The notes under the pieces were generated by a model. The model was not told the origin of the DNA and searched no databases. It saw nothing but the letters and a program-made list of their open reading frames with translations. From positions 604 to 64,603 of the forward strand of contig CAMDWQ010000005.1 of NCBI GenBank assembly GCA_945877765.1: a stretch of 64,000 nucleotides of DNA, read 5' to 3'. Numbering within the stretch: position 1 is the stretch's first letter; each line of letters opens with the position of its first letter. The stretch comes from Candidatus Omnitrophota bacterium (GTDB lineage Bacteria > Omnitrophota > Gorgyraeia > 2-02-FULL-51-18). Positions 3,650 to 63,704 of this stretch are shown piece by piece. Both the position numbers and the translations under genes were made by a program.

Positions 3650-3683
3650 CGATTTTAATTGTACCTTTTTAGGCCGCCCGAAA

Positions 3684-4946: not shown

Positions 4947-5013
4947 ATCTCCTCCTGATCTGAAATTAAGAAAAACACCCGTCACGCCGGTGACCGATGG
5001 TTCAATCGTCAGA

Positions 5014-5301: not shown

Positions 5302-5342
5302 TGAAAATTGATTGTAAACCTACGGAGGAAAAAAATAAAGGA

Positions 5343-8287: not shown

Positions 8288-8362
8288 CGGGGCGTAGCTC
8301 AGCTTGGCTAGAGCGCTTGCTTTGGGAGCAAGAAGTCGCAGGTTCAAATCCTGTCGCCCCGA
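8288..8362 (+). tRNA. tRNA-Pro (anticodon TGG)
   Basis: 'CGGGGCGTAGCTCAGCTTGGCTAGAGCGCTTGCTTTGGGAGCAAGAAGTCGCAGGTTCAAATCCTGTCGCCCCGA'. Acceptor CGGGGCG/CGCCCCG, anticodon loop TTTGGGA. Confidence 0.85.
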
Positions 8363-20900: not shown

Positions 20901-23900
20901 ACGGAACGCAAATATATACGTGGTCACAAACCGGTACGCTGAGCTGATCGACCACGAGATAAGAAGCCACTTCCAGTTGTTGCCCACGACACCCATGCCC
21001 ACCCCCAACAGATCGGAAGTCCATGTGAATATCTTTGGAAGCAAATGAAGCGAATAAAGAAGCAAATAGACATCGATCCCCGTGCTTGATTCCTTGAGAC
21101 CAGCAAGCTCATTTTTCTGATCCTCAGAAATCAACCCATGTGAATACGCTTTATCGATATCGTCAAAAAATACGCGATTGATAAAATTCATGCGGAATTT
21201 TTCCATAAAAATAAATTTCCCAATGTCAAAAGGAGCTTTGATTATCCGGAAAAGTGTTTTGACTGCCCAGCGGAGCACGCGCCAAGAAAAAGTGGCGGTT
21301 GCTGTGACGGCACTACGCATGAATTTGAATGGAAGTGTTAAAGAGTGCCCAACCATATAAGCTAAATAAGCAGACCTAGGCTCTCTAAATTCTCGGGCTT
21401 GTTCGGGACTGATGCGCTTGGTGATTTCCCAATAATCAATGTTATTTTTTCTTGAGAGCTTGAGAAATTCAGCAAGGTCAAACCCTTTTGCCCAAAACTG
21501 TGGGGAACGATCCAAGAAAGTCTCCCTAAGAGCACGATAATCTTTTATCCAAGCGGCTAGGTGAGCAGACTCCCCCGGTTCCAGTAAATCGGGGTGGGCT
21601 TTCATATATTCCTCAAAAAGATCCATATTCATTAGATGAAAAGTATCCGGATAATTCTCGGCTTGTTTCGCGTGATCAGTGGCGTCCCTGAATTGCTTAA
21701 AAAAGAAAAATGGAAACGTGTAGCCCCACAGCAGAGCCGATATATTTCTCTCCGTATCCACCCAAAGCATAAGGCCGCTTGCCAAACTCCGTTTGATGTT
21801 GGGAAATGAAAACCACGCCATCCCCGGCGCGCCGCTGTCATTGATAGCGACTTGAGAAATCAAGTTACCCGCACCGGCCTCCGCCAACGGCTGTTTAAGC
21901 TGGCGCATAAGCTCCACCTGTTCATCAAACTTTCCATCCTTCTCAGTTGACAACCGCAGATAAGACCCGCGCAGTTCGACGTAGTCCATCACCAGTGCCC
22001 AAGAGCCGGCTTGAGGAACCCAAGCATAGGCCTCGCGCGGAATGATGCCCTCAAAATTTTTACCTTTTAGAGAGCGAACGATCATGCTCAAAAATTTATA
22101 ATTATACAAAAGCGCCCTAGCGACCTCTTCATACCGCTGGGGACCAAACCCGCCTTGAAAGGTTAAAAAATATTGCACGTCCCGGATGATTCTTTTAAGC
22201 CCCCGCGCCCGAAATATCTTGAGGACCTTTATCTCTTTGTCTGGACCTTCCACTTTCCACACTTCACTAAAACCGCCGCCATCCCCCAGGCGAGATTTCA
22301 CCAGGTAGCTCTTATTGCCGAGACTATTCCCGGAAAAGTCCTTAAGCTCTAAGTTAATACTTAATTCTGGATACAGCCCATTTTTTGTATTTTCCGCCAA
22401 TCGCGCCGCGGTAGGCGTTAAGTGCCAAGCTTGATTTCCACTCGGTCGGGGTGTATATTCAGGGCGTAAAGGAGTTTTCCAATGAAAAAAAGCCTCATCT
22501 CCAGCGATCCCGATTTTTGCGCGGGGAAACTTTGCTTCACTGCGACGCGTATCCCTGTTTATATGGTTCTTGAGCTTCTCGAAGCGGGTGAATCTTGGAA
22601 AAAGATCCTCAAAAGCTACCCAAGTCTGAATGAGGCTCACATCCACGCCGCGCTTCACACGGCGGCTGAAGTCTTGAAAAATCAGGAATACCATTCTTTT
22701 GCCTAAATCTGACATTTCCTGGAAACTTTTTGGAGATGAAAATATCAGCTTTGACGTCATAAAATTTCTAAAGAAAAAGGGGTATAATGTCATTGCCTGC
22801 CCAAAAAGTCTAAAAAATGGCGAATTATTCCATCGGCTAATCAAAGAGAGACGAATACTTTTCACCCACGACAAGGACTTTCTGGACTCTGGGCGGTATC
22901 CTGCCTCTAAAACAGACGGCATTATATTCATCCCGATCCACCCCGCCACAGACAAAAATGTAATTCCCGCACTCCATAGCATGCTGGTAAAAATATCGCC
23001 GAGAGAAATATCTGGGCGGTTGGTTATTTTGTCAATGGATGGTTTCACCATCCAGCCGGACTCAGCAGACTTCGCTTCCTGATTCTCAGCTAGCCACGTA
23101 GTCTGATTTTTCTCCTCTATCCCATTGTCACGGCCTGTCTTCACCCCCAACGCCTGAGTAAGCTCCGCAATTTTCCCCGCCGTCAGAGTTCTGAGGAGCA
23201 TATTAGTTTTGGGTGTGAAGGAATTTAATACGGGAAGTGGTGAGTGGCTTTTTTGGCTTAAGAGAATTTGTTCGTATCTTTTGAGATTGGTCTCTTGCAA
23301 CACTTGAGGAGTCAGGGAAATGTAGGAGATGTTTTTCTGCTTGAGTAGGTATTTAAGATTGGGGGTGTGGTAGCCTCCGGTGATTAGAATGTACTCGTGT
23401 GCGGCGTGGGTAATGGTTTTTGTAGGTGCGGCGGGTCCGGGTCGCAAGCCCTCGCTTGCGACACTTCGCTTCGGCATGGATAGCCTTCGCGTCGTCACCT
23501 GTCGGACTCCGCTGTGCTCATGTAATTCTTCATTCCGCGCAGCGGAGGCCTCCCCTCCGGCGCCACCCGCATGTGCTTTGTTTGCTGTACCTGTCGCCGG
23601 GTGTGGGGTACTTTCTATCACCTCCAGCATATTGGAGATAAAGGCTTGGTCTCTTTGGTAGGTTAATTCATAGAAGTCTTCGCAATAACGAACCATGTCT
23701 TGGTAGCCATTTTCTAGGAATAAGGCTTTGTCATAATTGTTTTTTTGATTCATGAGCTTTTGGTTGAGGAAACCTGTGATTTTTTGGATACTCGTGTTTT
23801 GTTTATCTTTTCTATAAGACTCATACTCTTGGGGAGTTAGTTGAAGTAGGAATAATTTTTTTAGGAAGTCGATGTTGTTAGAAGCTTGAATTAGATTCTT

Positions 23901-25130
23901 TTCATCGGGGGTCACGATGAGAGAGTCGAGGATCTTTTGTTCTAGAAGCTTTTGTTCGTTTAGGATCTCTTGGGGGTTTAAGGACAATGAATATTTGAAA
24001 TAGGCTAGATACTTTTGAAGATGGGGATAGTTGCTATTGTCTTTTAGTTGATCCGATAGGAGAAAGAGGAAGGCTTTGTGGACTTGTTCGTCTTTGGATC
24101 TTGCGGCGTCTTGGAGCTCTTTTTGGGTTTGGGTGGAAAGAGAATTAATCAATAGGGCTTGTTCTTTTTGAGCTACTTCGAAGTTGATTTGTTTTTCTTT
24201 TTGGTTTAGGTCTTCTAGGAGTTGTATGTTTTTAAAGCCTTTAAGTTCTAGCTTTTGGGCTTCTTGAAAGAGAAGGCTTAGGTATTCTCGCAAAGAGAGC
24301 TCGCCTTTTTGGTGAGCTTTAAGTTTTTGGTTAAAGGCTAGAAGGTAGGGGTTTAAAAGAGTGGGCTCCAAGGTGTGAATTGTGTTTTCAACTTGTGCTA
24401 GATAATCGCTGTATTTTTCCCTTCGTTTGGCACTTCGCCGGTAAAGCTCCACCGACTTGGCGTAGAGAGACATGTCTTCTACTCCCCAGAGCGTCATGGG
24501 GTGATTGCTGGTTAGGTCTAGATACTCGGTGCCTTGGAGTTTGGCCTGGAGAAGAAAGGATTTGGCGACTTGTTGTCTTTTTTCAAGGGAGGCGTATTTT
24601 CTTAAGAAAGAGAGAGATTCGTTGCCGCTTCCAGCTTCTAGGAAGATGTAGTTTGAGAGATTCTTTTTCTGGCTATAGAGGATATCTAAGAGCTTCGCCT
24701 CATTGAGTTGTCCTGAGTTGTTGGTGTGAGCATCTTGAATTAGTATTACACATGCCGGGTGGCGCCGGAGGGGAGGCCTCCGCCGCGCGGAGTGAACATT
24801 TACACGAGCACGGCGGAGTACCGCAGGTGACAGGCCCCGGCCACTCCGTAGCACGCTTTTGGTTGGAGCAACCCAAGCATCTTCGATAGTTGCTACTGAT
24901 TCAGGGATTTGGGGAAGAAAGTCTTTGGCCCACTTTAGACTTTTTTGCTTTTCCCCTCCATCCTCAATCCTCCATCCTCTATCCGCCTTTAATAGTTCAG
25001 GAGCTGCATAAGAAAACTCTTGAATTAAAAGGCATAAAATTAGCGTGAGCGAGAGGCTCTTAAGAAAGACCGTTCGGGTCGCTTTATTAGCGAGGGCGGT
25101 GTTATTTGTCATAAGTTCATGTGTCAACAT
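14967..25130 (-). CDS. giant modular protein (3387 aa): signal/anchor, a ~600-aa N-module shared with the second giant ORF, a kinase-like module, an M23 peptidase module and further uncharacterised modules separated by AARLA-type junction motifs
   Basis: Single uninterrupted 10,164-nt ORF. N-terminal hydrophobic segment. The N-module aligns with ORF 47988..55961 ('IQDAHTN', 'LEAGSGNESLSFLRKYASLEKRQQVA', 'GGYHT'). Gly-loop 'LGDGGGFSEVWKVE..KVLKI'. M23 signature 'HGGIDLA...YTVYTHI...GDSVRHGKNIGKIGPSRN...PHLH' at about 18230..18560. Confidence 0.7.
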   Translation of the reverse strand: MLTHELMTNNTALANKATRTVFLKSLSLTLILCLLIQEFSYAAPELLKADRGWRIEDGGEKQKSLKWAKDFLPQIPESVATIEDAWVAPTKSVLRSGRGLSPAVLRRARVNVHSARRRPPLRRHPACVILIQDAHTNNSGQLNEAKLLDILYSQKKNLSNYIFLEAGSGNESLSFLRKYASLEKRQQVAKSFLLQAKLQGTEYLDLTSNHPMTLWGVEDMSLYAKSVELYRRSAKRREKYSDYLAQVENTIHTLEPTLLNPYLLAFNQKLKAHQKGELSLREYLSLLFQEAQKLELKGFKNIQLLEDLNQKEKQINFEVAQKEQALLINSLSTQTQKELQDAARSKDEQVHKAFLFLLSDQLKDNSNYPHLQKYLAYFKYSLSLNPQEILNEQKLLEQKILDSLIVTPDEKNLIQASNNIDFLKKLFLLQLTPQEYESYRKDKQNTSIQKITGFLNQKLMNQKNNYDKALFLENGYQDMVRYCEDFYELTYQRDQAFISNMLEVIESTPHPATGTANKAHAGGAGGEASAARNEELHEHSGVRQVTTRRLSMPKRSVASEGLRPGPAAPTKTITHAAHEYILITGGYHTPNLKYLLKQKNISYISLTPQVLQETNLKRYEQILLSQKSHSPLPVLNSFTPKTNMLLRTLTAGKIAELTQALGVKTGRDNGIEEKNQTTWLAENQEAKSAESGWMVKPSIDKITNRPDISLGDIFTSMLWSAGITFLSVAGWIGMNIMPSVLEAGYRPESRKSLSWVKSIRLSLISRWNNSPFFRLFGQAMTLYPFFFRNFMTSKLIFSSPKSFQEMSDLGKRMVFLIFQDFSRRVKRGVDVSLIQTWVAFEDLFPRFTRFEKLKNHINRDTRRSEAKFPRAKIGIAGDEAFFHWKTPLRPEYTPRPSGNQAWHLTPTAARLAENTKNGLYPELSINLELKDFSGNSLGNKSYLVKSRLGDGGGFSEVWKVEGPDKEIKVLKIFRARGLKRIIRDVQYFLTFQGGFGPQRYEEVARALLYNYKFLSMIVRSLKGKNFEGIIPREAYAWVPQAGSWALVMDYVELRGSYLRLSTEKDGKFDEQVELMRQLKQPLAEAGAGNLISQVAINDSGAPGMAWFSFPNIKRSLASGLMLWVDTERNISALLWGYTFPFFFFKQFRDATDHAKQAENYPDTFHLMNMDLFEEYMKAHPDLLEPGESAHLAAWIKDYRALRETFLDRSPQFWAKGFDLAEFLKLSRKNNIDYWEITKRISPEQAREFREPRSAYLAYMVGHSLTLPFKFMRSAVTATATFSWRVLRWAVKTLFRIIKAPFDIGKFIFMEKFRMNFINRVFFDDIDKAYSHGLISEDQKNELAGLKESSTGIDVYLLLYSLHLLPKIFTWTSDLLGVGMGVVGNNWKWLLISWSISSAYRFVTTYIFAFRHPEQKFGWAYLSVLPIVNVIGVPLQILASFKQLKPLVILKIRLSVQKWVGRVPGFGEPAGLLSSYYGDKVVADNIIKVATWITGLIPSSTGGESSKDNSGAAARLALSRVEGLAENSGSQMSRTDTSSRVYAINGNIQKKDPAFVHDFVRLIRSGDGFDAKNVSQAPAYKEYLVTTPDVLQTYVVKVHIANELANRFMVITLPGNQRLIIRDNGQNDSDYQAIRNKLEGKTRPQAARLAGNSESKILRTDPISSKRRSGARLAKATFKIVKDHRDTKFFDSLSHEEKAIAEKIMSGALVSTADILQAQALHQGKIFIQHREYFWPEEGRTIYLKLDSPIDGILYIRFKGVRPRVDEANKLVPYLGEAGFVKFPPTIDNQGRFTTTTFAGQNYSGTLNPKGAELEDELMRKLSQLSLPVDKALGWALMESSHDSTQQYAWVAAGMTGEDFRLSVTDQGVIGDLKHNSSDSKASDRDFFNPIKNKESVQKIFYEYGKALRELHRNGYIHRYPTFANTGLMQGSEEKKWHVVLRDLNTVWNVPESADALGSARLRFLDVSRVLHTILVHDTSEDFVAMLRSFVDGYFFDAKQESVANIFKQCLNNEGEMWYLITSVVSDDRPQEENRVSFEITDQLKLTFLTVRGILIKQDNPFSLLIEALTDASTRDLSAARLAKKPVSQMSRTDTGSEVDISAVQPNQPAEQPSAVQETVMVGQTDLHSREKSQDKIFLKKAHRQLSRMVLSSYRKTAKEWGARRFILREGMKFGDLGCWWREVSRFKSHREQKHGGIDLAVIESVDGKVEAAGSGRPVFSLIDGKVKWIFEDDMQSTVIMETTVYGRKLYTVYTHIVPAEGLKQGDSVRHGKNIGKIGPSRNKSIIAPHLHQAIFYFRDEAEADRLQDPNYDIINQMAVENKIIYIDPADLIPASERNKIFVSDPTWETTIESVALIGEPRDARPLRREIFWAIPGIKRVEDVPNPASTTDITIEKTTEGWALHSADGEWQGDASSTAEVLNHLIQLENKHRSGARLALRRAEGLVESPESQMSRTDTGSTAAAARLAGHDPQISRSSLLSLIQSWQTAAVGSPHDAARGYSEVVFAVNRLFDGSEYKNFPSQVSSALDRLRNQGTVILDQGDWSARTALESLEAVAMAYIVKSMSEPLSEHEVVVMEEAIEVYNNGSNAKLKLDFESLFGLVLKRFLILGGDLKNVQDPLANEGFIKMSLQLPNLFSPEIMQSDATDPPLFRRRLQAVKMIALYHFLQGVHFNSFSSDSHHDLIIMHANMLFLKKQYESLSTIPRDDLDSKITDELDTVISAVQMSLFRVWSQLIPFFNGGISYENFVYPAISGMPNDLHQQYTSFFKYNEDFIQRLSRPIIADVLKDSKDYPLLGQKITFYRAGKGGYEESLNQRLKGFEPPEKISAWQLFLDRRKSYFFNSEAGMLQDYKWAHSRNIIEYKNSQVVAQLVRYTKALNLLGQGGMTAARLAASEGNEKIITMKIKHSQGIHMAPSQNIAYVAKIILQKCGIQLFLRHAGPATGMHSERLKYDATKANTLSGAFHSGEEIELISKRIWGNVDEGEILKIAEDLLKDALEDQYGVQPGQHISRYASRVEKLADANESHRLDSSSPAAPQNDGADQAARLAENKKIEMEDSLPTNSQTLQDLKTFFTEMSLPMPMHGKKSMWGRLAVQQESGVIPIFNLRKSAQGLQVRVGAKILFRISPEEMRMIKETLKKDQGRQSARRGQGFLIERMQKMWNEQVPGAIGTGFGFVEIDLAQLVDPRFGSVLDLKAKKVLLKAIFDRVARSRGNQYILLNIDQLPGKMGLTAQRRLARIQSKARMGQVLTQRPEGAVVSRIVLSQAGDKIEKLKSDSVVALLVEGLPNTGIAFLEAETLAGLWSAHAGQGKEQMIQAIGESGLINFLNSLRLGKPKIDSAKFYAIQTQEIIEGESLLWILLPPITALVNDMASAIRLSLQTDWSA
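22482..22706 (+). CDS. DUF433 protein (antitoxin-like partner of DUF5615), nested antisense inside the giant ORF
   Basis: AAAGGAG ribosome-binding site 8 nt upstream. 'ATRIPVYMVLELLEAGESWKKILKSYPSLNEAHIHAAL' matches the DUF433 family. Confidence 0.55.
   Translation: MKKSLISSDPDFCAGKLCFTATRIPVYMVLELLEAGESWKKILKSYPSLNEAHIHAALHTAAEVLKNQEYHSFA
22699..23082 (+). CDS. DUF5615 PIN-like protein (toxin-like), nested antisense inside the giant ORF
   Basis: Overlaps the DUF433 gene by 8 nt (typical TA coupling). 127 aa. DUF433-DUF5615 is a known gene pair. Confidence 0.5.
   Translation: MPKSDISWKLFGDENISFDVIKFLKKKGYNVIACPKSLKNGELFHRLIKERRILFTHDKDFLDSGRYPASKTDGIIFIPIHPATDKNVIPALHSMLVKISPREISGRLVILSMDGFTIQPDSADFAS
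23485..23572. repeat. MITE family C copy, in-frame inside the giant ORF (inverted relative to the copy at 24754)
   Basis: Reverse complement matches the 24754..24845 and 63585..63680 elements ('gcggaggcctcccctccggcgccaccc'). Translated within the giant protein as '...GGAGGEASAARNEELHEHSGVRQVTT...'. Confidence 0.55.
24754..24845. repeat. MITE family C copy, in-frame inside the giant ORF
   Basis: 'gccgggtggcgccggaggggaggcctccgccgcgcggagtgaacatttacacgagcacggcggagtaccgcaggtgacagg'. Encodes '...NVHSARRRPPLRRHPA...' in the giant protein. Confidence 0.55.
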
Positions 25131-25233
25131 AACATGGATAAAGTATGCCCAATTGGGTCGACAGAAGCAAACTTAAAATAGAAATTAATTATTGTATAAC
25201 CTGTTATAAATAATAGAGTTACAGCCATCCAAT

Positions 25234-25266
25234 GTCATCCCCGAAATTTCTTATCGGGGATCATAC
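25234..25266. repeat. MITE family A half-element upstream of the giant ORF start
   Basis: 'gtcatccccgaaatttcttatcggggatcatac'. Confidence 0.5.
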
Positions 25267-25289
25267 TTTAATATAGGGCTTGGGGGGGG

Positions 25290-27241: not shown

Positions 27242-27272
27242 GGTGCCATAGGGGTCAGACCCCTATGGCACC
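27242..27272. repeat. single REP palindrome (31-bp perfect palindrome)
   Basis: 'ggtgccataggggtcagacccctatggcacc' between glpK and cobO. Confidence 0.6.
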
Positions 27273-36207: not shown

Positions 36208-36214
36208 AAACCCT

Positions 36215-36432
36215 ACAACCCCTCCGCCTTCGGCACCTCCCCTTCGAAAGGGGAGGAAATCGTGCTGTCTTTCCCCTCCCTTTTAAAACAGAAGAAAATC
36301 AAGCACCTTTTCCCCTCCTTTCGAAGGAGGGGTGGCGCCGAAGGCGACGGGGTGGTTGACACGTTCAACACCATGTCTAAACCCCTGCAACCCCTCCGCC
36401 TCCGGCACCTCCCCTTCGAAATGGGAGGAAAA
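36215..36432. repeat. MITE family B ('CCCCTCCGCCTCCGGCACCTCCCCTTCGAAAGGGGAGG ... CCCCTCCTTTCGAAGGAGGGGTGGCGCCGAAGGCGACGGGGTGGTTGA'), 1.5 copies inserted between the moxR and DUF58 genes
   Basis: Nearly identical to 62418..62540. Imperfect terminal inverted repeats and internal palindromes. Confidence 0.55.
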
Positions 36433-36436
36433 TTTT

Positions 36437-37432
36437 CTACGGAACCTCAATCTGGTCAAATACCATTTTCACCAAATCTTCCGAAGTTTTTTGCTCAGCT
36501 TCGGCTTCATACGTGGGAATTACTCGGTGGCGCAGCACATCCAGTCCGATGGCTTTCACGTCATCCGGCACCACATAGCCGCGGCCTTTGAGAAAAGCAT
36601 GGGCTTTCGATGCAATATTTAGATAAATCGTCGCACGCGGTGACGCGCCGTAAAGCACAAGCGCTTTCATCCCTTTTATTTTATAGGCTTCGGGGTCCCG
36701 CGTCGCGCATATGATATTGACGATATAATCTTTGATTTTGTCATCGATATAAATCTCTTTAACCACCTCGCGGGCGCGCAAGATATCCTCGGGTGTTGCC
36801 ACGGGCCTAATCACCGCGGGCTTGTGTCCTGCCATGCGATCCATGATTTCCAACTCTTCCTTCTTGTTGGGATAATTAATTTTAAGTTTAAACATAAAAC
36901 GATCTACCTGCGCTTCAGGAAGCGCGTAGGTTCCTTCCTGCTCAATCGGATTTTGAGTCGCCATGACCATAAAAAGATCCCCCAGCGAATAAGTCTGCCC
37001 GCCCAGCGTGATCTGTCTTTCCTGCATCGCTTCCAAAAGAGCGCTTTGAACCTTCGCCGGCGCGCGATTAATTTCATCCGCGAGAATTATATTAGAAAAA
37101 AGAGGGCCTTTTTTAGTCACAAACTCGCCAGTCTTCGCATTGTAAATCTGCGTCCCCAACAAATCCGCCGGCAAAAGATCCGGAGTAAACTGTATCCTCT
37201 GAAAACCCGTGCTGATCGCCTGCGAGAGCGTTTTTACAGAAAGCGTTTTTGCCAGCCCCGGCACACCCTCCAACAGCACGTGCCCATCCGCCAAAAGACT
37301 CAACAAAAGCCTCTCCACCAGATAATTTTGTCCAACAATGACTTTGCCGATTTCCGCCTGCAAAGCACGGATCAACACACTCTCTTTTTCAACTTTTTGG
37401 GCGACTTCTTTGATATCAACGCTCATAATCAA
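36437..37432 (-). CDS. MoxR-family AAA+ ATPase
   Basis: 'LLEGVPGLAKT' Walker A and full MoxR-like length. First gene of the Bat-type operon. Confidence 0.85.
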   Translation of the reverse strand: MIMSVDIKEVAQKVEKESVLIRALQAEIGKVIVGQNYLVERLLLSLLADGHVLLEGVPGLAKTLSVKTLSQAISTGFQRIQFTPDLLPADLLGTQIYNAKTGEFVTKKGPLFSNIILADEINRAPAKVQSALLEAMQERQITLGGQTYSLGDLFMVMATQNPIEQEGTYALPEAQVDRFMFKLKINYPNKKEELEIMDRMAGHKPAVIRPVATPEDILRAREVVKEIYIDDKIKDYIVNIICATRDPEAYKIKGMKALVLYGASPRATIYLNIASKAHAFLKGRGYVVPDDVKAIGLDVLRHRVIPTYEAEAEQKTSEDLVKMVFDQIEVP

Positions 37433-39300: not shown

Positions 39301-39500
39301 GATGACATGGAGTGCCAGGGTCCAACACCCGACGGGTGGCGCCAACTCCCGGCACGCGGTCAAAAAATTATTTCGGGACGCGTAGATGAGACGAGCGGCC
39401 ACGGTGTCCCGTCGTAGTAGACGGGACGAGCGAGTCCTCATCTCCGAGTTAATTTTGCCTCGGCGGGGCAAAATTAACGCCGGCCCGAAATGATTTTTTG
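39301..39500. repeat. composite structured element: family-C-like head ('cccgacgggtggcgcc') followed by a ~170-bp region bounded by a 27-bp inverted repeat (gcacgcggtcaaaaaattatttcgggac / gcccgaaatgattttttgaccgcgtgc)
   Basis: Long perfect inverted repeats visible directly. Inner second inverted repeat 'ctccgagttaattttgcctcggcggggcaaaattaacgccgg'. Confidence 0.45.
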
Positions 39501-39517
39501 ACCGCGTGCCGAGCACA

Positions 39518-47418: not shown

Positions 47419-47991
47419 ATGCCTAGGCCATCAAGAATGATTTACGAGGAAGCGTTTTATCATGTATTTAACCGTGGAGTTAATAAAATGCCTATATTTT
47501 TTGATGAATTAGATAATAAAATATTTATAAAAATATTGCGTCATGAAGCATTGGAAATGAATGTTCGTGTGTTTGCTTATTGTCTAATGCCGAACCATTA
47601 TCATTTATTCATCCAAACTAAAAATGCTAATTTGAATATATTCATGCAAAAATTGGCAGGTCGCTATGTCCAGTTAGTTAATTTCCGGCATAGCCGGGTT
47701 GGCGCATTGTTTCAAGGTAGATATCAAAATCGTCTGGTGGATATCGACTCGTACGCACTGAGGTTAACTAGGTATATTCATCTGAATCCGGTGATCGCTG
47801 GTTACGCCAAAAGGCCGCAGGACTATCCATGGTCCAGTTACAACAGTTATCGAGACAACCAAAATTCTTGGATATCGACTGACTTACCGCTAGAGCTTTT
47901 AGGTGGAAAAAATAAAGCTTCGTTTAGGCAATTTGAGAAGTTCCATGAAACGGTGCCAGAGGGGTCTGACCCCTATGGTACCGTGGTTTAG
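47419..47991 (+). CDS. REP-associated tyrosine transposase (RAYT, IS200/IS605-like Y1 transposase)
   Basis: HuH motif 'HYHLF'. 'YIHLNPV' family signature. 190 aa. The 3' end reads through another REP copy (47953..47982). Confidence 0.75.
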   Translation: MPRPSRMIYEEAFYHVFNRGVNKMPIFFDELDNKIFIKILRHEALEMNVRVFAYCLMPNHYHLFIQTKNANLNIFMQKLAGRYVQLVNFRHSRVGALFQGRYQNRLVDIDSYALRLTRYIHLNPVIAGYAKRPQDYPWSSYNSYRDNQNSWISTDLPLELLGGKNKASFRQFEKFHETVPEGSDPYGTVV

Positions 47992-50900
47992 GCGGCCTGG
48001 AGAAATTGGCGCTGCTGACTGGCGAGAAAACGCAGGGCCGTGCTGACGTCGACCTGGGTGAGCGCCCGCAAAGCCAATCGTGCGGCTAGTTGAAGCAACG
48101 CCCGGCCCAAGAGGACTTCCGTGAGTTCTTGGGTTTCGGGACGCAGTCCTGAAAGCGTCGCCCAGGCATCGTCAAACGGCTGAGGACGGTTTTTGGGATC
48201 CTTCAGACGGCCCAAAATGATGGCTAACTGCATGAAGCTAAATGATAACACGTCGCCATCGGCCACTTCTTTCACCGGCACGCGAAGCTCTTCTTGGAGA
48301 GCGGGCCTCTGCGGCGGACCAACACGCACCATCTCGGCTCCCACCAAGTCCTCGGGGGCAGATTCCAGAAAGAGACTACTATCCCAGCGGATCCAAGTAG
48401 CGGCATTGACGCCGACGGGAACCAAATAGACGTTTCGTCCCCATTCTTTCGATTTTATCGTATGTAAATACAGGATAAACGCTTCAAGGTACGCAGGACT
48501 TGCCATGTCCAGCCAGGCGGTGTTGATTTCTAAAATCACAGGCTTGGTGTGATCCACAATCACCGAATCCAAGAGCGAGTTGACGCGCCCTTCCACCGAA
48601 GAGGAAAGACTACTCAGCGCACTGATACTGTCCGCACCACGGCCACGACTGCGAATCAACTGCTCATACTGCCCGCGAGTTACCGTCAGAATAGATTTAC
48701 TGTAGCCACGAAGCCAAAGCTCGGCTTCCCCCTTCTTATTCATCCTGACATTTAATAGGGATGAATCTCGACCCCTAGCTGTCTCTACGGGGAAATCCGC
48801 CTCATTTTTTAATTGTGCTATTTCCCAGGTAGAAACCTTAAAAAGGTTCCTATTTTTTCGAATCAAACGGCGTAGATAGCTTTGTGACCGCGTAAGCGAA
48901 GACGCTGCACGGGCTCGAGGCCGACTGCTGGCCGACGACGCATTTTGCAAGCGTGATCGTGAAACATAAGGCTCGATAATAGATAAGCCGGCCAGTCGGG
49001 CGGCAACTGACGGAGAGACAAAAATAACAGTCTGCGTGAATTCATATGTTCCCCGCGGTGGCACTTTTATATAAAAAAACATCGCATCAGGCTTATTTCT
49101 GGTTAATTCTAATTCCTGGTCTCCGATATTCAGAATGCGCGTGGTAACGGTTGCATAATCATCCGTTAATGTAAACGTCCTATCAATCGTAAAATCTTGA
49201 TACTGGCGAGTCTCCAGCTCTAAATTGGAATTCATTGAAGTGGAAAGCTCCTCAAGGCGCATCTTAACAAATGCTGTGCCGTTGACACGGTTAGCGTCTA
49301 TCATCTTCCATTGCCCATTAAGCAGAGTTGGATATGCCCAAAAATGTCCATCCAATGTTTGGCCATTAACAGCGGTAGTATTCCAAAAAACAGGCATTGT
49401 CGCTCGAGCTGGGATCCGGAGCGAGCTCCTTCCCGATAGACTTATAAGCTTAATCCAATCTCTCCCATCACGCTTTTCAACCGGCAATACTCTCTTAGCT
49501 ATCGCAGATAAAATATTTCTTGCTAACTCACTATCTGTTTTTAGTGAGAGCTGCGTCGAAGATGCTTCTGGATTATTATCTGTTGGATTTGAAAACGATA
49601 AAAATTTGTGCATTTTTTTACCCTCTCTTTGAAAATCAAATTCAAGAGAGACAATCATTTGTTTTCCCCGCTGTCCGTGAGGGATACGAATGGTCAAGAG
49701 CCCATCCGTAAAATCGAAACTATCAAAAACGTATACATTGTTTGTAGATCCTGTAGCGCGTACGCCATGAACAAGCTCTCTAAAATTAGTGAAACGGCCA
49801 ATAGCTGCGATCAGCTCGTCACTAGTTATGCTCTGGACTTCATCATCAACCCATGCCGCCAACCGCGCAGCAACCGGAACCGCTGGAACCTGATAAGTCG
49901 CTTCACTTTGAAAATAACTGGTAGGCGCCGTCGGATTCATTTTGGAACCATAGGCAACCGCAAACAGATTCCCTTCTTTGGACTCATACATTTTGTCGCC
50001 ACTATCCATCGCGATTACTTTAAATCTAAATATGCCAGGTCGCTTAGCTTTTAGATTTAGAACATAGCGAAAGATGCCATCCTGGGAAAAATTCGGATCC
50101 CGAACCATATCAAATTCCGACTCAACCTCACGCTCATCCTCAGTATATTTCAACGTCACCTTCACAGAAGCAGCTGCTTCGGCCACATACGCTTCAATTA
50201 AAAATGGGGTTATCTCTGTATTGGCCGTATCCGTAAACCGATGCATTTCCTCGCGATCGTTTTCACTGTCGGGACTTGTGCGAACGATAAGATCTTCTTT
50301 TTTTTTCTCTAGATCTTTTTCTGAAAGCTCTTCCCTCTTGGCGAGCAATTTCTTAATCAGTGCTACGGCGCGTGTTACTTCCACGGGCACCGCCTGGCCA
50401 TCTTCGGTCACCGGATTTCCCTGTAAAGCGGCTCTGAGATTTTCAACAGTGATAGGTAACTTGTTTTCCCATTGGCCGGATTTTTTCCCCGCTACGTTTA
50501 TTTTGTTCTCCGGTCCATACGCTCCGAGGTCAAGCCAGTTGGGAACAAACATGAGCGAATCCGACATAAAGCTAAGCTCAAGCAATGCCTCTTGCACAGC
50601 GGAAGTCAATTCGCCTGACTCGGCTATGGAAGGGTCCAACCCCGTCATTTCAGGAAATTGCGCTCGGGCGATTTCTAAAAATGCTCTTCTTGTGCCTGTG
50701 TCGGTTTCATTCCAGTCACTGCGCATGGACTCTGAGTCATGAAGACTATAAGTCCTAAAAGCAACCGGCTGTGAGGAACGTGGATCATGAACATTTTCAC
50801 CATTCTCACTGGGCATTTTTCCCCACATGGAGCATACATAATCAAAAGCACCTAGATGAGGCTTTTTGAGCTGTTCCGACGTAAAACGCGCCAATGTCTC

Positions 50901-53900
50901 AAAGATCACCGACGTCCCCGCTTTTTTGGCCCGATCCAGAAGCTCTGAAAAAAGTTCCTCTCCCGGACCGTAATCGTAGGCAGCGACACGCAAGTTATCG
51001 TCGGCCTGGGGACCCTCGCCTTCGAAAAGATACTGAACAATTCCATTATCTATATCTTTATCAACCAAATCTCTTTTTCCATAACGATGGTCTGTCAGCC
51101 GGACATAATTCCACACCGGCCCCTGCCCGTAAACTTTTGGCTCCACCACATCATCCACACGGACCCATGGCGCCTCCAATCCTTGATACTTGTCATCTGC
51201 TTTTTTAGCCTCGCGCGCGACGTACATCATCGCGTACTCGGCCAAATGATCTTCGTCTGGATAAGCCAAGTCCACGAGCCTTTTGACCAAGGGATTGGCG
51301 GAAATTAATTCCGATGTTTTCAGCGCGTGTGCAAAAATCGCGGTAACTTTGGCGGCGGTCTGCTTCTTAATATTCTCCGCCTCAACTGGCTTTTGACTAG
51401 CCTCGGCCTTGGCGGCATCAACCATTGATCGCACTTGGTCATAGACCCCTAGACTCCCAAGAGTAAACTGACTTTCACCATCTTCCATATACAAATACGC
51501 CAAATAAAACCCAAGCACATGATCCAAGCGTATCGTGGTCGCCATTTTCTGGTAGTACTCAAAAAGCTTGATCATGTACGGCAGAGTATCCGGATGAGAC
51601 CAATCATAAGCAAAAAACTGCCAGTATTGACCAATGGGGTGCTTTTCCTCCGGTAGAGAGCCGTGCGTAAAAGGCCTTTGGTAACCATTTTCTTTTTTAA
51701 GACCGAAAATCTGGGGATTCATCCACACGTCAGCCCCGCCTCGGGCGAAAGGAATATCCATGGCGACTTGAATGCCATTTTCCTTAGCAACCGCCGCATA
51801 CTGATCAAATTGATCCCGCGCGACAAACTGGATAAACGAGCGAAGTTCAATCTCGCCTGCATATTTATTTTTCAAGCGCGCAATTTCATCCGCATTTCTA
51901 TCACTAATGAGTTCCTCCCAAGTTCTCCAATCCCAGCCATTAAATGGATTTTTACTTAGATGTTCTTCTTTGAGAATAAGAAATAGCATATGATCCGGTA
52001 GCCAGTCCGCGTGGTTGGCCTTAAACTCATCAAATTTTTGCTTGGTCTGGCTCTCTTTAAACCCAGCCGAATTTTTTAAAGAATCCCAAATAATTTCAAG
52101 GGCTTCTTTATTAAGCGCAATCACTTGGTCATGCTGAATCGTTTCGCTGTCGCTGAGGCTTTGAATTTGCTGAGCATGCGCTGTAACAAACTCGTCATAG
52201 GCTCTAAGATCCAGATCGCCGTTGAAAGATTCTTTTAGGGCGGCTACCAACATCGGAACGCTGATATAACGAAGGTCAATCGCTCGAGAACTATCCTCCG
52301 AATACGGCGAATTAAATGCCGCCGACCATATCAGTGGAAGGATCTGATGCATCGTCAATCCCATTTCTTTAAAAATAGGGATCATTTGAATAGCGGTCTG
52401 GAAATTTCCTATTCCCCAATCACCCTTGTGACGCAGATGGTGAAACGGCATGAAAGACCCTGTGATTCTCTTGCCGTATTCGACGGGAGAAATAAAATCT
52501 TTCGCTAGGGGCCTATCAACAACCTCAATCGCCGCCAAGCGCGCGCCATCAGCTTTCACCAATCCCGAATCGCGCAAGATGTCTTCAGGTTTAATGGCAG
52601 AGCCCATCATCATCAAATGCGCGCCTGTAACCCAAGGATAATCCCGACGAATTTTTTGGATTTGCTCAACAGCCTTGCGTCGACTAAATTTTTTGAAATT
52701 GTCATGTTTTTCAGTAGTATCTTTCTTCCACTCCGCTTCGTATTCACGCACAAGCCTAAAAGCCTCTTCATTTTTTCTCCAATTAATTCCCGTCAAATAC
52801 ATCCAAAATCGGATTCCCCATGGAGAAGCAAAAGCGGTAATACCCACATGAACTTTGATGTCTTTTGTGCGATCGTCCTCGTGAATTGCTTCCAAGTACT
52901 GTTCGAATGGCTCCCATAAGATTGGGGGCTGCGTAAATATGCCCTGAACATTTTTATGAGCCAGTCTTTCAGCGGTTTCCGCTGTAGGATATAAATTTGG
53001 ATTTGCAGCAGCATATAGTGAGATATTGTTAGCAGAGGGATTCATCAAATCTCTTGCCATTGAAGCTACGCTTTTCGATGAAACGGGCCATATTTCTGAG
53101 CCTGCCAAAAGATTTTTAAATAAACGTTGAGCTAACCCTCCTCCCGTGACTACAAATAATCCAATAATGTTTTGGTTTTCAGCGGCTAAGGAGATTACAG
53201 CTTCAAGACGCTTTATCAAACTATTTCTTCGACGCGCATTCGCCGCTATAGTCACAATGGTATTGAATTTGCTTCCGGCGGCCAACTCGAGAGTATCATC
53301 CGTTTTCACCAATCGCTTTCTGTAATTTTTAAAAACCTTCCAAAAGTCTAAGTTTCCGTTCATCTGGCTTTGATAAAATACATATAGATCTCTATCTTTC
53401 CACCAGGATTCAATTCCTTTTATGAAGAAAACGTGCTTAAGAATCGAGTCAACCACATGTGCCCATAAAAATTCAAGAGCTTGAAAACGTGCCGAGTAAG
53501 GTAGGTCTGTTAAAGTAAGTGCATACACGCCGAGTTTTTTTAATCGGTCCGGGCTACTGCTATTGAGCCCATTAGAACTCTCGACGGTGATAATAAAGCT
53601 ACTGTTTGCCTCCGCCAACCGCGCGCCCTCATCGCGAGCTTCCCTATGCTCGCGTCGCCATAGATTTCGCCTTGCTTTGTCGGTAGCCCTATTAAAATGA
53701 GGCCCCCCACCTTTCGATTTAGCCCCTACAAGTAATTCCGGCTCCCCTGCCAAAAATTTGCTCGCCATTTCGCGTGCAGAAATACGAGCTTCCTCTTTCA
53801 AATCTGATCCTGGTTGCTCTAATATTTTCAGTGTATTAAAAATGTTTATTTTTCCAGAATCATCAGCGCGCTCAAAAACTCGTTCGAGCATAATCAAAGC

Positions 53901-55961
53901 TATATGTTCTTGGGTGCTAGTCCGTTTTTCGGCATCGGGGGCAATACCTTTTACTGACTTGATTAGACACTCCACAGCTCTAGCCATCAAATCAGGCTCT
54001 AAAGCAGCAAAAAATATACTAATGCTCTTTCGATGGCTGGCCACAAAACCCCGCTGATCAAGATGCCCAACAATAAGCTCTATCGGTTTCAAAATTCTTC
54101 CGGAAAGGTTCTGCCGGGCTTTTACGTCCCGCTGCAATCGAGTCAATCTCCTTAAGGCTATGCCTCCATCCTTTTTATTTTGTATGTTACGAAGTTCGTC
54201 CTTTACCTCTATGTAGAGGGCAGAATATACGTTATCTTCTTTCTGCCGTTCCATACTTTTAGCAGCTAACCTCGCCCCCCGAGGGACCATTGTCCCCAAC
54301 CGCGCAGCAACAAGCGTTGTAACCAGCTGACCCTCAAAAACCTGCTGAGCACCCGGCACCGTTGCCAAGGTGGAGTCATTGTTCGAGGCGGTCTTGGTTT
54401 CCTGCTCGGATCCTGGGGCTAGCTGATCTAAGAGTATTTTTTCATATTTCTCTTTACTGGTTTCCTTGAGGATTCTCGGCACCACCACAACATAGGAAAT
54501 ACCGCGCGCCTGCAAAAGCTCTTTTAAATGCTCGGTATGAAACCCGCCGCAGACTAAAATGGCTTTTTTCTCCTGGTGGCGGTCCATTTGCTCCAACATG
54601 TTTTCAAGAAATGCCTTATCGCGCAGGAAGGTCAGGTCATAAAATTGCAGCGCCTTTTGGAAATCAACCCCCAACCGCTCATCCCACATCACCACGTCTT
54701 CCGCGGGAGACCCCGTAGCCATGATTTTTAAATTAAAAAAACCGGCAATATTTAGAAAGCTATAGTCGCTTGGGTTTTTTTGGATCTGGGTAAAATCGTC
54801 CTTGGAAAGCTCCAAGTTAAAAAGCCGCCTCAATACTTCCGAGGCACGGCAAGCGGCCAAAAGCTCTTTTTCATCACTTGTGCGCGCCAAAAGATTAAAG
54901 ACAATCTTTTCCAGCCCTTCTTTTTCTTTTAATACTTCGGCGGCGCTAAAAGCCCTCGACCTCATGACATATTCAATGCTTTTGGTCAGCTGGGGATAAA
55001 AAGAGGGGTTTGTATTTTTTTCTTTTAAGAGTGAGTAAAACGCGTCCTGCACTTGCGGATCCAACTTCGACCCATTCACTTTCATTTGCTCGGCAATTTC
55101 TACAAGGGGCTGACGCTCGCTGACTGAAAGTGAGGCGATTAATTGCGCCTGCTCGCTCTGGGCTTTTTCAAAATTGATTTGCTTCTCAAGCGTACGGATA
55201 TCTTGCATTTGGGCTAAGTGAGGAAATAATTCGAAAGACACGTTTAAGTTTTTTGCTTGAGCCGCTAGTGCGTCGAAATAGTCCGCGGAAGAGCTCTCTT
55301 GATTTAAAAAAGCATCCCGCCGGGCGTCCATTTGTTGAAGCAGAGGATTCCAAACCCTGGCGGTGAGAGTTTTTTTGGCGCGCCGGAGCCGGTCCAGAGA
55401 CTCATTTAAAAAAGGCCTGTCTTTTTTAAGATCGCGGTAAAGAGCCAAACCCTCCCAATAAAGTTTTTTATTTTCCACGCCCCATAAAGAAAATGTTTTG
55501 TCTGAGGTGAGATCTAGATAATCGGGTCCTTGAATCAAACCCCGGCGTAAAAAATCACGAGCAACTTGTTGTCTTTTTTCCGGCGTGGCAAAACGGCGCA
55601 GATAAGAAAGAGAATTGTTCCCCGTGCCGGCTTCTAAATAGACATGCTGGATCGATTCGCTGCTTAAAATCGTATCGATGGCTTTGGCGATGTTGAGACC
55701 GGCGGATTCATTGGTGTGTGCGTCGCGAATCAAAACGATTGATCGGTCCGCGTGCGGCGCTGTATATTTTTCTTCCATCAAGGCAACCGAGTCAGGAAGT
55801 GTGAATGTCAACTGCGGCGGAAACATCACTTGGCTAATTTCTGCGGGAGAGGCAAGCGCAAACTCTTGCCCAGCAAACGCCACCAGCAAAACCACAGAAA
55901 TGGTTTTGAGATAAAATTTAGACTTGTTGGGTCGTATATTTAATAGTCTTAATAAAGGCAA
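47988..55961 (-). CDS. giant modular protein (2657 aa): signal/anchor, an N-module shared with the first giant ORF, a GH77 (4-alpha-glucanotransferase/amylomaltase)-like module and other modules, separated by AARLA-type junction motifs
   Basis: Single 7974-nt ORF. N-terminus 'MPLLRLLNIRPNKSKFYLKTISVVLLVAFAGQEFALASPAE' parallels the N-terminus of ORF 14967..25130. GH77-like signatures 'WGIGNFQTAIQMIPIFKEMGLTMHQILPL', 'MDIPFARGGADVWMNPQIF', 'GQYWQFFAYDW' and 'IRLDHVLGF' at about 51200..52470. Confidence 0.7.
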   Translation of the reverse strand: MPLLRLLNIRPNKSKFYLKTISVVLLVAFAGQEFALASPAEISQVMFPPQLTFTLPDSVALMEEKYTAPHADRSIVLIRDAHTNESAGLNIAKAIDTILSSESIQHVYLEAGTGNNSLSYLRRFATPEKRQQVARDFLRRGLIQGPDYLDLTSDKTFSLWGVENKKLYWEGLALYRDLKKDRPFLNESLDRLRRAKKTLTARVWNPLLQQMDARRDAFLNQESSSADYFDALAAQAKNLNVSFELFPHLAQMQDIRTLEKQINFEKAQSEQAQLIASLSVSERQPLVEIAEQMKVNGSKLDPQVQDAFYSLLKEKNTNPSFYPQLTKSIEYVMRSRAFSAAEVLKEKEGLEKIVFNLLARTSDEKELLAACRASEVLRRLFNLELSKDDFTQIQKNPSDYSFLNIAGFFNLKIMATGSPAEDVVMWDERLGVDFQKALQFYDLTFLRDKAFLENMLEQMDRHQEKKAILVCGGFHTEHLKELLQARGISYVVVVPRILKETSKEKYEKILLDQLAPGSEQETKTASNNDSTLATVPGAQQVFEGQLVTTLVAARLGTMVPRGARLAAKSMERQKEDNVYSALYIEVKDELRNIQNKKDGGIALRRLTRLQRDVKARQNLSGRILKPIELIVGHLDQRGFVASHRKSISIFFAALEPDLMARAVECLIKSVKGIAPDAEKRTSTQEHIALIMLERVFERADDSGKINIFNTLKILEQPGSDLKEEARISAREMASKFLAGEPELLVGAKSKGGGPHFNRATDKARRNLWRREHREARDEGARLAEANSSFIITVESSNGLNSSSPDRLKKLGVYALTLTDLPYSARFQALEFLWAHVVDSILKHVFFIKGIESWWKDRDLYVFYQSQMNGNLDFWKVFKNYRKRLVKTDDTLELAAGSKFNTIVTIAANARRRNSLIKRLEAVISLAAENQNIIGLFVVTGGGLAQRLFKNLLAGSEIWPVSSKSVASMARDLMNPSANNISLYAAANPNLYPTAETAERLAHKNVQGIFTQPPILWEPFEQYLEAIHEDDRTKDIKVHVGITAFASPWGIRFWMYLTGINWRKNEEAFRLVREYEAEWKKDTTEKHDNFKKFSRRKAVEQIQKIRRDYPWVTGAHLMMMGSAIKPEDILRDSGLVKADGARLAAIEVVDRPLAKDFISPVEYGKRITGSFMPFHHLRHKGDWGIGNFQTAIQMIPIFKEMGLTMHQILPLIWSAAFNSPYSEDSSRAIDLRYISVPMLVAALKESFNGDLDLRAYDEFVTAHAQQIQSLSDSETIQHDQVIALNKEALEIIWDSLKNSAGFKESQTKQKFDEFKANHADWLPDHMLFLILKEEHLSKNPFNGWDWRTWEELISDRNADEIARLKNKYAGEIELRSFIQFVARDQFDQYAAVAKENGIQVAMDIPFARGGADVWMNPQIFGLKKENGYQRPFTHGSLPEEKHPIGQYWQFFAYDWSHPDTLPYMIKLFEYYQKMATTIRLDHVLGFYLAYLYMEDGESQFTLGSLGVYDQVRSMVDAAKAEASQKPVEAENIKKQTAAKVTAIFAHALKTSELISANPLVKRLVDLAYPDEDHLAEYAMMYVAREAKKADDKYQGLEAPWVRVDDVVEPKVYGQGPVWNYVRLTDHRYGKRDLVDKDIDNGIVQYLFEGEGPQADDNLRVAAYDYGPGEELFSELLDRAKKAGTSVIFETLARFTSEQLKKPHLGAFDYVCSMWGKMPSENGENVHDPRSSQPVAFRTYSLHDSESMRSDWNETDTGTRRAFLEIARAQFPEMTGLDPSIAESGELTSAVQEALLELSFMSDSLMFVPNWLDLGAYGPENKINVAGKKSGQWENKLPITVENLRAALQGNPVTEDGQAVPVEVTRAVALIKKLLAKREELSEKDLEKKKEDLIVRTSPDSENDREEMHRFTDTANTEITPFLIEAYVAEAAASVKVTLKYTEDEREVESEFDMVRDPNFSQDGIFRYVLNLKAKRPGIFRFKVIAMDSGDKMYESKEGNLFAVAYGSKMNPTAPTSYFQSEATYQVPAVPVAARLAAWVDDEVQSITSDELIAAIGRFTNFRELVHGVRATGSTNNVYVFDSFDFTDGLLTIRIPHGQRGKQMIVSLEFDFQREGKKMHKFLSFSNPTDNNPEASSTQLSLKTDSELARNILSAIAKRVLPVEKRDGRDWIKLISLSGRSSLRIPARATMPVFWNTTAVNGQTLDGHFWAYPTLLNGQWKMIDANRVNGTAFVKMRLEELSTSMNSNLELETRQYQDFTIDRTFTLTDDYATVTTRILNIGDQELELTRNKPDAMFFYIKVPPRGTYEFTQTVIFVSPSVAARLAGLSIIEPYVSRSRLQNASSASSRPRARAASSLTRSQSYLRRLIRKNRNLFKVSTWEIAQLKNEADFPVETARGRDSSLLNVRMNKKGEAELWLRGYSKSILTVTRGQYEQLIRSRGRGADSISALSSLSSSVEGRVNSLLDSVIVDHTKPVILEINTAWLDMASPAYLEAFILYLHTIKSKEWGRNVYLVPVGVNAATWIRWDSSLFLESAPEDLVGAEMVRVGPPQRPALQEELRVPVKEVADGDVLSFSFMQLAIILGRLKDPKNRPQPFDDAWATLSGLRPETQELTEVLLGRALLQLAARLALRALTQVDVSTALRFLASQQRQFLQAA

Positions 55962-63584: not shown

Positions 63585-63680
63585 CCGACGGGTGGCGCCG
63601 GAGGGGAGGCCTCCGCCGCCCGCAGTGAAGAATTACACGAGGACAGGCGGAGTCCCGCAGGTGACAGGACCCGTCGAGCA
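63585..63680. repeat. MITE family C copy between the SDR and queD genes
   Basis: 'ccgacgggtggcgccggaggggaggcctccgccgcccgcagtgaagaattacacgaggacaggcggagtcccgcaggtgacaggacccgtcga' with terminal inverted repeats ccgacgggt/acccgtcg. Confidence 0.55.
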
Positions 63681-63704
63681 CTTACACCGTACTAAGGAGC
63701 ACCC

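Follow-up and report, generated by a model that had tools for sequence, protein, structure and literature searches.

Family C, a GC-rich imperfect palindrome with a core of ~84–92 nt, occurs three times in a 64,000-nt stretch of DNA from a Candidatus Omnitrophota bacterium (GenBank assembly GCA_945877765.1, contig CAMDWQ010000005.1, positions 604 to 64,603; the whole stretch is hereafter the window). One copy lies between genes, and two lie in frame and in opposite orientations inside a giant open reading frame (ORF) of 3387 codons. Our analysis indicates that family C is probably a mobile hairpin repeat that landed in frame and is tolerated in loops of the giant protein. The two insertion places fall in the N-terminal domain (N-domain) of this protein: at site 1, the copy directly precedes the strand VILIQDAHTN; site 2 is flanked by a long helix on one side and by the strand ILITGGYHT on the other.

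The three copies were located with a 29-mer probe (GGTGGCGCCGGAGGGGAGGCCTCCGCCGC, at most one mismatch) that matches 23539–23567 on the minus strand and 24758–24786 and 63591–63619 on the plus strand, with a chance expectation of 0 in 100 dinucleotide-preserving shuffles. A repeat search returns the in-ORF pair as inverted arms of 76 nt (23494–23569 and 24756–24831), 88% complementary and 1186 nt apart, both of which match the intergenic copy at ~90%. Probe and repeat search thus bear out an earlier reading of the DNA letters alone (the sequence-only reading), which had reported family C between genes and as two inverted copies within the ORF. The extent of ~90 bp given there describes the core, but homology between copies reaches 106–112 nt for the site-1 copies and 107–109 nt for the intergenic ones. 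The presumed ends of the element are CGACGGGTGGCGCC...ACCCGTCG.

Eight distinct copies were studied: three in the window, two in contig L001, and one each in L002, L006 and L009/L010 (Table 1). The intergenic copies sit in unrelated contexts. In the window, the neighbors are a short-chain dehydrogenase gene (62799–63548) and the next plus-strand gene (start ~63706), and the 91-nt core of this copy is 100% identical to the intergenic copy of L001 (899–989), on another contig. In the window and L001, the intergenic form exceeds the in-ORF form by 1 nt. We considered whether the shorter form is an ORF-specific variant, selected for a length divisible by three, and rejected this idea; because the intergenic copy of L009/L010 also has the short form, length does not distinguish in-ORF from intergenic copies.

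Site 1 was delimited by the spacer between the conserved motifs IED and LIQDAHTN, which is covered by 61 of 62 aligned sequences. The spacer measures 10–13 amino acids (aa) in 30 of the 61 homologues, with a mode of 12, and 45 aa in the window protein and in P0014 (encoded in L002), giving a net insertion of ~99–102 nt (33–34 codons). Family C occupies this site in three of the 61 (the window protein, P0014 and P0020, the last encoded in L006) and is absent from the other 58, including the paralogue encoded in the window. The sequence-only reading had correctly seen that the copy at 24754 encodes a peptide just before IQDAHTN, which we assign to aa 94–127.

In P0014 and P0020, family C at site 1 reads ...PGGAGGEASAAR... 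and has the orientation opposite to that in the window. BLASTN aligns the gene flank in L006 (2696–2936) to window 25093–24853 on the minus strand, and the element next to it (2935–3031) to window 24743–24839 on the plus strand with 93.8% identity, while the upstream gene flank ends in ...AAAAG(T/C) in both. A shared flank joined to a flipped element places the insertion point at the same position to within the ~7-nt terminal repeat. The flip would stem either from insertions that took place independently at one preferred target or from an inversion in situ. A second comparison at this site involves L001 and L002, whose flanks are 89% identical upstream and 93% identical downstream: L002 carries family C, and L001 carries a perfect 31-nt repetitive extragenic palindrome (REP; GGTGCCAnAGGGGTCnGACCCCTnTGGCACC) of a family also present in the window, read as VPQGSDPSGT.

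At site 2, family C is found only in the window protein and in P0001, the orthologue encoded in L001, among the 14 sequences compared in alignment A2; in the other 12, the helix runs straight to ILITGGxHT. DNA alignment shows that the two copies are the same element in the same orientation and place (L001 11548–11636). The sequence-only reading had described this copy, at 23485, as an inverted element within the ORF, which stands, but took it as uninterrupted, which does not: a nested 54-nt insert splits the body from the last 8 nt (23433–23440). That reading had also placed the copy just before ITGGYHT, when it lies ~35 aa upstream. The nested block sits between CAGGTGA and CCGGACCCG, has no counterpart in the L001 copy, and is unique in the window. 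It forms a 9-bp stem, GTCGCAAGC-GAGG-GCTTGCGAC (fold z = −3.8), and, judged by the alignment, is an in-frame insertion inside the family C copy. A further ~60 nt flanking the site-2 copy was considered as an older outer palindrome and discarded, as it folds no better than shuffled sequence (z +0.7, −0.8).

The inserted DNA is 88–100% identical to intergenic copies in the window and on other contigs, compared with 45–65% identity between window and L001 over the central part of the host gene's coding DNA. The paralogue has no inserts at the equivalent positions, as had been noted from the letters, and BLASTP opens gaps at both. The outcome that would have overturned the insertion reading, namely that the segments are ancestral and present in all homologues, did not materialize, since family C is absent from 58 of 61 sequences at site 1 and from 12 of 14 at site 2. 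By comparison with these homologues and intergenic copies, both segments are insertions rather than ancestral coding sequence. Neither copy brings a stop or a frameshift, again as first read, and the 3387-codon ORF is intact. The proposed check of length modulo three shows that whole codons were added: the site-1 gain is ~33–34 aa, and the nested piece measures exactly 54 nt. When three copies were tested, 2/6, 3/6 and 4/6 frames of the element proved open, i.e., about half. Lengths divisible by three without stops were found at site 1 (window and L002), at site 2 (window and L001), and for the nested 54 nt.

The N-terminal ~640 aa of the giant ORF contain a signal-anchor and a QDAHTN...GGYHT domain common to more than 60 Omnitrophota proteins; a Peptidase_M23 domain is located farther downstream (aa 2211–2295). 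Searched against a database, the N-domain gave 13 homologues, all from Omnitrophota/Omnitrophica where named, and a profile built from three sequences gave 56. A look-up of the giant protein itself yielded no record. The N-domains of the two giant ORFs in the window are 33% identical over ~500 aa (BLASTP), with gaps at both places of insertion. An AlphaFold model of the window N-domain, computed from a 15-sequence alignment, has a mean predicted local distance difference test (pLDDT) score of 73.5 and is high in the conserved parts. The score falls below 50 at residues 92–101, 111–121 and 513–576, that is, inside both inserts. These low-confidence stretches link strand 80–86 to strand 127–132, and helix 476–507 to strand 579–584, so that in the predicted model both inserts are loops between confident core elements. 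The N-domain has no match in Pfam, no sequence match in the PDB with the family profile, and no significant Foldseek match in the PDB; a TraB/Tiki/ChaN-like fold was considered and dropped, as none of the three supports it.

Compared along its length, the N-domain gene of the window (25130–23200) and that of L001 (10001–12019) form a mosaic of nucleotide identity. Identity is 80–100% over aa 11–80, including 60 identical nt across the signal anchor, and 82–95% over aa 486–600, and only 45–65% over the central helical part (aa 140–480).

The family C core consists of a single long imperfect hairpin, with predicted energies of −34 to −51 kcal/mol on either strand (z −1 to −3.5). The RNAalifold consensus of a seven-copy alignment contains 26 pairs, with 97.3% of the cells paired and compensatory double changes at four of the pairs. 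Its covariation score of 0.125 is reached by 0 of 500 shuffles (0.056 ± 0.014) and drops to between 0 and 0.05 when pairing partners are slid by 1–3 columns. The closing stem CGGGT...ACCCG is invariant across the seven copies and is extended by 1–5 complementary bases, depending on the subfamily; the site-1 copies add imperfect outer repeats, GTRYTAC...TG(G)CCGGG. Two stem pairs distinguish the site-2 copy of the window from that of L001 (TG/CA versus CA/TG); both are compensated, and each comprises one synonymous and one non-synonymous change. In this small sample of site-2 copies, the hairpin is conserved and the peptide is not. As compensatory changes keep the hairpin even within the ORF, the constraint would act on DNA or RNA structure rather than on the peptide. 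An Rfam scan of the window yielded only two tRNAs at the gathering score, with no match for family C and none to an intron or ribozyme.

The loops that harbor family C also carry inserts in other members of the protein family. The site-1 spacer exceeds 13 aa in 31 of 61 homologues; measured against the 12-aa mode, the gain is +5 to +46 aa, and the added sequences are unrelated. Counted by column occupancy, inserts of at least 5 aa are present at site 1 in 20 of 62 sequences, in a second loop (after aa 157) in 13 of 62, and in a third loop in 5 of 23. Seven of seven site-1 inserts read as DNA fold as hairpins, and these belong to several unrelated families. L007 and L008 have elements of the form GTCATTGCGAG...CTCGCAATGAC at site 1, with energies of −80.5 and −56.8 kcal/mol for folded stretches of 201 and 132 nt that include conserved flanks. 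Heptamer-built palindromes are inserted in P0001, P0014 and P0007, and short GC hairpins in P0004 and P0005. L007, which stems from a different groundwater project, carries two in-frame copies of the D1 family of the window (GTCATYCCCGA...TCGGGRATGAC), one at site 2 and one in the third loop. Inside the window, all copies of these other hairpin families are intergenic.

D1 is the most abundant repeat of the window, where it forms single or double hairpins of ~40–90 nt; one copy lies just upstream of each giant gene (25229–25267 and 56074–56158). The family is also present in L002 and in L007, where it is read in frame. In L007 (2213–5500), the N-domain is split into two called ORFs (2213–3127 and 3140–5500) and holds three in-frame palindromic inserts from two families. 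The 3′ end of the window paralogue (47981–48191), GC-rich and well folding, was examined as a candidate in-ORF element and turned out to be ordinary coding sequence followed by a REP.

The sequence-only reading had classed family C as a miniature transposable element with inverted repeats (MITE). This description holds in part. The element is below ~500 bp and far too short to encode a transposase, and its copies are dispersed, with three in the 64-kb window, two within 20 kb of L001, and others in L002, L006 and L009/L010. The closing stem provides terminal inverted repeats, and presence is polymorphic, as site 1 is filled in the window, L002 and L006 and is without family C in the close relative L001. 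No target-site duplication could be established, and no parent insertion sequence (IS) was found among the 42 window ORFs scanned. Family C also differs from the REP system of the window. REPs and a REP-associated tyrosine transposase (RAYT) of the Y1 type together make up a REPtron (PMC3733652), and the RAYT-type gene of the window is flanked by 31-nt REP hairpins (GGTGCCAnAGGGGTCnGACCCCTnTGGCACC; 47209–47239, 47298–47328 and 47952–47982) in a classical arrangement of this kind. Further REPs stand at other gene ends (3132–3253 and 27242–27272). It is this 31-nt GGTGCCA...TGGCACC family that qualifies as REP/REPtron; family C copies measure 84–112 nt, and none adjoins the RAYT gene. Family C behaves like a MITE or a long REP in a narrow lineage of uncultivated Omnitrophota.

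An intergenic element of ~190 nt (39325..39515) has ends that resemble family C and its flanks, an interior that differs, and inverted arms at 39350–39380 and 39481–39511; it may be a related, longer member of family C. The window also contains a composite GC-rich element (36210–36460 and 62415–62525) with two internal hairpins (CCTCCCCTTCGAAAGGGGAGG and CCCCTCCTTTCGAAGGAGGGG). The 11-mer GGGTGGCGCCG is common to the composite element and family C and has six matches in the window with at most one mismatch, against 1.1 expected.

We propose that family C resides mostly between genes, and that two copies landed in surface loops of the N-domain that join conserved core elements; the loop at site 1 leads from the leader region to the strand that ends in IQDAHTN. 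Given whole codons and no stops, the ribosome most likely reads through, and the protein would gain ~34 and ~46 loop residues at the two sites. Outcomes that shifted the frame or bore a stop would have been removed by selection. The inserts would persist since the loops tolerate almost any sequence, and not because the peptides are needed; the same loops have repeatedly accepted unrelated palindromes in other members of the family. Because half of the family, including the paralogue, is without any insert, the inserts look like tolerated passengers rather than needed parts. The constraint on the hairpin would serve mobility or reflect palindrome-templated repair.

Several observations weigh against this account. 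Translation of the inserts, which we infer, is argued from frame and stop statistics. About half of the homologues have some insert at site 1, which is a high rate for pure tolerance. Copies of family C within ORFs are so far known from one gene family only, a pattern that a site preference or a local function would explain no less well than tolerance: a profile of the forward-frame peptide run against 1.84 billion representative proteins found five proteins, corresponding to this family plus two short ORFs. No match to family C was obtained in GTDB representative genomes and JGI metagenome contigs with an exact 23-mer, an exact 22-mer, or a gapped pattern (GGTGGCGCCGGAGG N30–58 GCGGAGT N3–10 CAGGTGAC). 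A protein search with six concatenated translations of the element found P0014 only and, having missed P0001 and P0020, was insensitive. No cognate autonomous IS was found among the 42 ORFs of the window in a Pfam scan. Each of the eight copies has a TA dinucleotide on either side, 6–22 nt away from the core; by a rough estimate, chance alone would put a TA in such an interval in ~75% of cases. The 102 nt observed at site 1 would be accounted for by an element of 100 nt and a duplicated TA. We considered a TA target-site duplication and do not claim it, as it fits but is indistinguishable from chance.

The same evidence can be read in other ways. An exapted role, in which selection acts on the hairpin, or on a long and flexible loop, at site 1, is unlikely in our view. 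Site 1 lies ~50–85 codons past the signal-anchor helix. If, for example, the hairpin slowed translation as an mRNA structure while the protein is being targeted to the membrane, or if the loop tuned the domain as a spacer, this would explain why palindromes are there in many lineages. The spacers above 13 aa in 31 of 61 homologues, the unrelated families that in seven of seven inserts examined as DNA form hairpins, the compensatory changes that retain the hairpin in the ORF while the peptide changes, and the restriction of in-ORF family C to this gene family all agree with selection. Half of the homologues, including the window paralogue, nevertheless lack an insert, and position, length (+5 to +46 aa), sequence and orientation are all variable, which looks like tolerance; covariation can arise in master copies before insertion, and palindromes may just be the most common type of mobile DNA that these genomes contain. 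A related reading, in which the loops are selected 'landing pads' with hairpin DNA recruited as a useful mRNA pause or stability element, or as portable homology for swapping or inverting the central block, is also doubtful. Less probable is a purely recombinational role, in which recombination between the inverted copies flips the 1.2 kb that they enclose and so acts as an on/off switch, or in which the copies serve as crossover points that swap the central N-domain between alleles. The 76-nt inverted arms would be suited to it, and the divergent block between window and L001 (45–65%) is roughly bracketed by the two sites. Moreover, the L006 gene stops at the right end of its site-1 copy with unrelated DNA beyond, and the site-1 copy is inverted between relatives with a common flank. 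For the inversion, which the sequence-only reading had suggested, these signs are circumstantial. An inversion would destroy the 3387-codon ORF, and none of the four assemblies carrying the gene contains an inverted isoform. Homologous recombination would work poorly on 88% identity over 76 nt, and none of the neighboring genes encodes a recombinase. The break in L006 may be a chimera that assembly created at the repeat, and the mosaic boundaries do not match the elements exactly, the right one falling ~20 codons upstream of site 2.

It is very improbable that the inserts are skipped during translation or removed from the RNA and so are missing from the mature protein. Stable GC-rich hairpins in an AT-richer gene superficially resemble bypass elements; yet every in-ORF event examined is divisible by three and stop-free, which is expected only if the inserts are read, and the window has no Rfam intron or ribozyme match that would account for removal. 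The notion that the segments are ancestral protein sequence, or that a repeat was collapsed into the gene during assembly, is effectively refuted. Ancestry can draw on the copy common to two lineages at site 2 and on nothing else we found, and it conflicts with the 58 of 61 and 12 of 14 sequences lacking the element and with an identity to intergenic copies (88–100%) far above that of the central coding DNA. An artefact is at odds with the in-gene copies in independent assemblies from other samples (L001, L002 and L006) and with the homologous coding sequence on both sides of each insert. We retain, as the probable explanation, a mobile hairpin repeat tolerated in loops.

Other features of the giant genes and their surroundings were recorded in passing. 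The motif [AG]ARLA occurs nine times in the giant protein (0.14 expected), six times in the paralogue, and four times in a 2653-aa ORF of L001. SQMSRTDT(G/S)S often comes next, and the DNA core AAGTCAAATGTCAAGGACTGACACC of the motif is near-identical at four positions of the gene and in L001; the motif resembles a linker between modules, or a site of processing, in a modular protein or polyprotein. In L001 (11925–12160), the N-domain ORF is parted from the next giant ORF exactly at the [AG]ARLA region by tandem TGACCCCAGACA repeats. Two N-domain genes are truncated. In L006 (2677–3111), the gene ends at the right end of family C and is followed by the 3′ end of a convergent lpxB; in L002 (8976–9116), 137 nt identical to DNA downstream of the L001 giant gene follow after aa ~240. 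These truncations are either real deletions or joins made in assembly at k = 141. Away from the giant genes, 49 nt of the window (7998–8046) are 84% identical to part (8131–8179) of the tRNA-Arg(TCT) gene (8128–8204, minus strand) 133 nt away. Neither ARAGORN nor Rfam calls a tRNA at 7998–8046, which may be a tRNA remnant. A tRNA-Pro(TGG) gene is found at 8288–8362.

Table 1 Family C copies and other features of the window and of related contigs (window coordinates unless a contig is named).
Feature	Position	Strand	Remarks
Family C, site 1	24743..24854	+ (antisense to gene)	core hairpin 24754-24841; aa 94-127 = LRSGRGLSPAVLRRARVNVHSARRRPPLRRHPAC
Family C, site 2	23433..23570	- (sense to gene)	body 23495-23570 = AGGAGGEASAARNEELHEHSGVRQVT, aa 521-546; 3′ tail 23433-23440
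Nested insert in site-2 copy, 54 nt (18 codons)	23441..23494	-	encodes about TRRLSMPKRSVASEGLRP
Family C, intergenic	63586..63692	+	91-nt core 63586-63676
Family C	L001 899-989		intergenic, between convergent genes
Family C	L001 11548-11636		site 2 of orthologue P0001; second copy within 20 kb of L001
Family C	L002 ~8517-8622		site 1 of P0014
Family C	L006 ~2935-3040		site 1 of fragment P0020
Family C	L009/L010		intergenic, between divergent epimerase genes; one in NCBI metagenome-assembled genome GCA_947444795.1
Giant ORF, 3387 aa	14967..25130	-	hosts both in-frame copies; no internal stop
Paralogous giant ORF, 2657 aa, GH77 domain	47988..55961	-	N-domain empty at both sites; internal control
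IS200-like Y1 transposase (RAYT-type), PF01797, E = 8.5e-10	47419..47991	+	only transposase among 42 window ORFs
Intergenic element, ~190 nt	39325..39515	+	5′ ACACCCGACGGGTGGCGCC and 3′ GAGCACATTA resemble family C and flanks
D1 repeat, GTCATYCCCGA...TCGGGRATGAC	7224, 10865, 25229, 33292, 37511, 37553, 39273, 44747, 56074, 57155		all copies intergenic
[AG]ARLA, giant ORF	aa 909, 1513, 1646, 1670, 2079, 2435, 2465, 2890, 3047		e.g. 17738-17850, 18820-18935, 20500-20615
[AG]ARLA, paralogue	aa 563, 780, 1140, 2032, 2321, 2627		

What distinguishes this system is the reuse of the same loops by unrelated hairpin families, insertion in both orientations within ~7 nt, nesting, and hairpin-preserving covariation within a coding region. 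Our search of the literature gave no relevant report on palindromic repeats in Omnitrophota, and the present case extends selfish palindromes within proteins, of the type known from Rickettsia, to a phylum that is uncultivated and has become known chiefly through metagenomes. This case amounts to a natural experiment, in which two or three loops of one domain were hit by several hairpin families and relatives carry filled and differently filled alleles. The system is suited to studying how peptide segments originate from mobile DNA, what renders a loop permissive, and whether it is nucleic-acid structure or the peptide that is constrained as it evolves. On the practical side, gene calls in metagenome-assembled genomes of Omnitrophota can be broken up or cut short by these repeats (as in L001, L006 and L007), which also give rise to spurious short ORFs (such as P0066 and P0068).

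Among known systems, bypass inserts such as those of T4 gene 60 and the mitochondrial 'byps' of Magnusiomyces are GC-rich, structured and mobile, and lie within coding genes. They need not have a length divisible by three and often carry stops; the inserts described here differ, all being divisible by three and stop-free in the frame used, which argues that the ribosome reads through them.

A closer parallel is offered by Rickettsia palindromic elements (RPEs), a comparison already drawn from the letters alone and apt in light of the literature. As far as the sources consulted describe them, RPEs are palindromic repeats of ~100–150 nt, present in intergenic DNA as well as in frame within genes that are unrelated or essential (Ogata et al. 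2000 Science 290:347; Ogata et al. 2002, via PMC10969869), adding a peptide segment where the protein fold was judged compatible (Ogata et al., via PMC10969869). Other in-frame palindromic mobile elements include intragenic ERIC (enterobacterial repetitive intergenic consensus) sequences (Delihas 2007), QMITE1/2 of Coxiella, and MITEs of Anabaena (PMC10969869, PMC5896051). Like RPEs, family C is a palindrome found both between genes and in frame, at predicted permissive loops, with lengths divisible by three and an intact ORF. Unlike RPEs, which occupy many genes, its in-ORF copies are so far confined to one protein family, and its host phylum is Omnitrophota. The likeness is one of behavior and not of membership in a sequence family, and no sequence relationship is expected. 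To our knowledge, reuse of the same loops by unrelated palindromes, in both orientations and with nesting, has not been described for RPEs.

Family C further resembles the bacterial MITEs that fuse in frame in being small, non-coding and dispersed, with inverted ends, polymorphic presence, and copies that are sometimes intragenic and open. It departs from them in that the whole element is one imperfect hairpin, not two terminal inverted repeats around a non-palindromic core. With REPs it shares the character of a GC-rich extragenic palindrome, but it is two to three times longer, lies away from the RAYT gene, and has only short motifs (GGTG...) in common with them.

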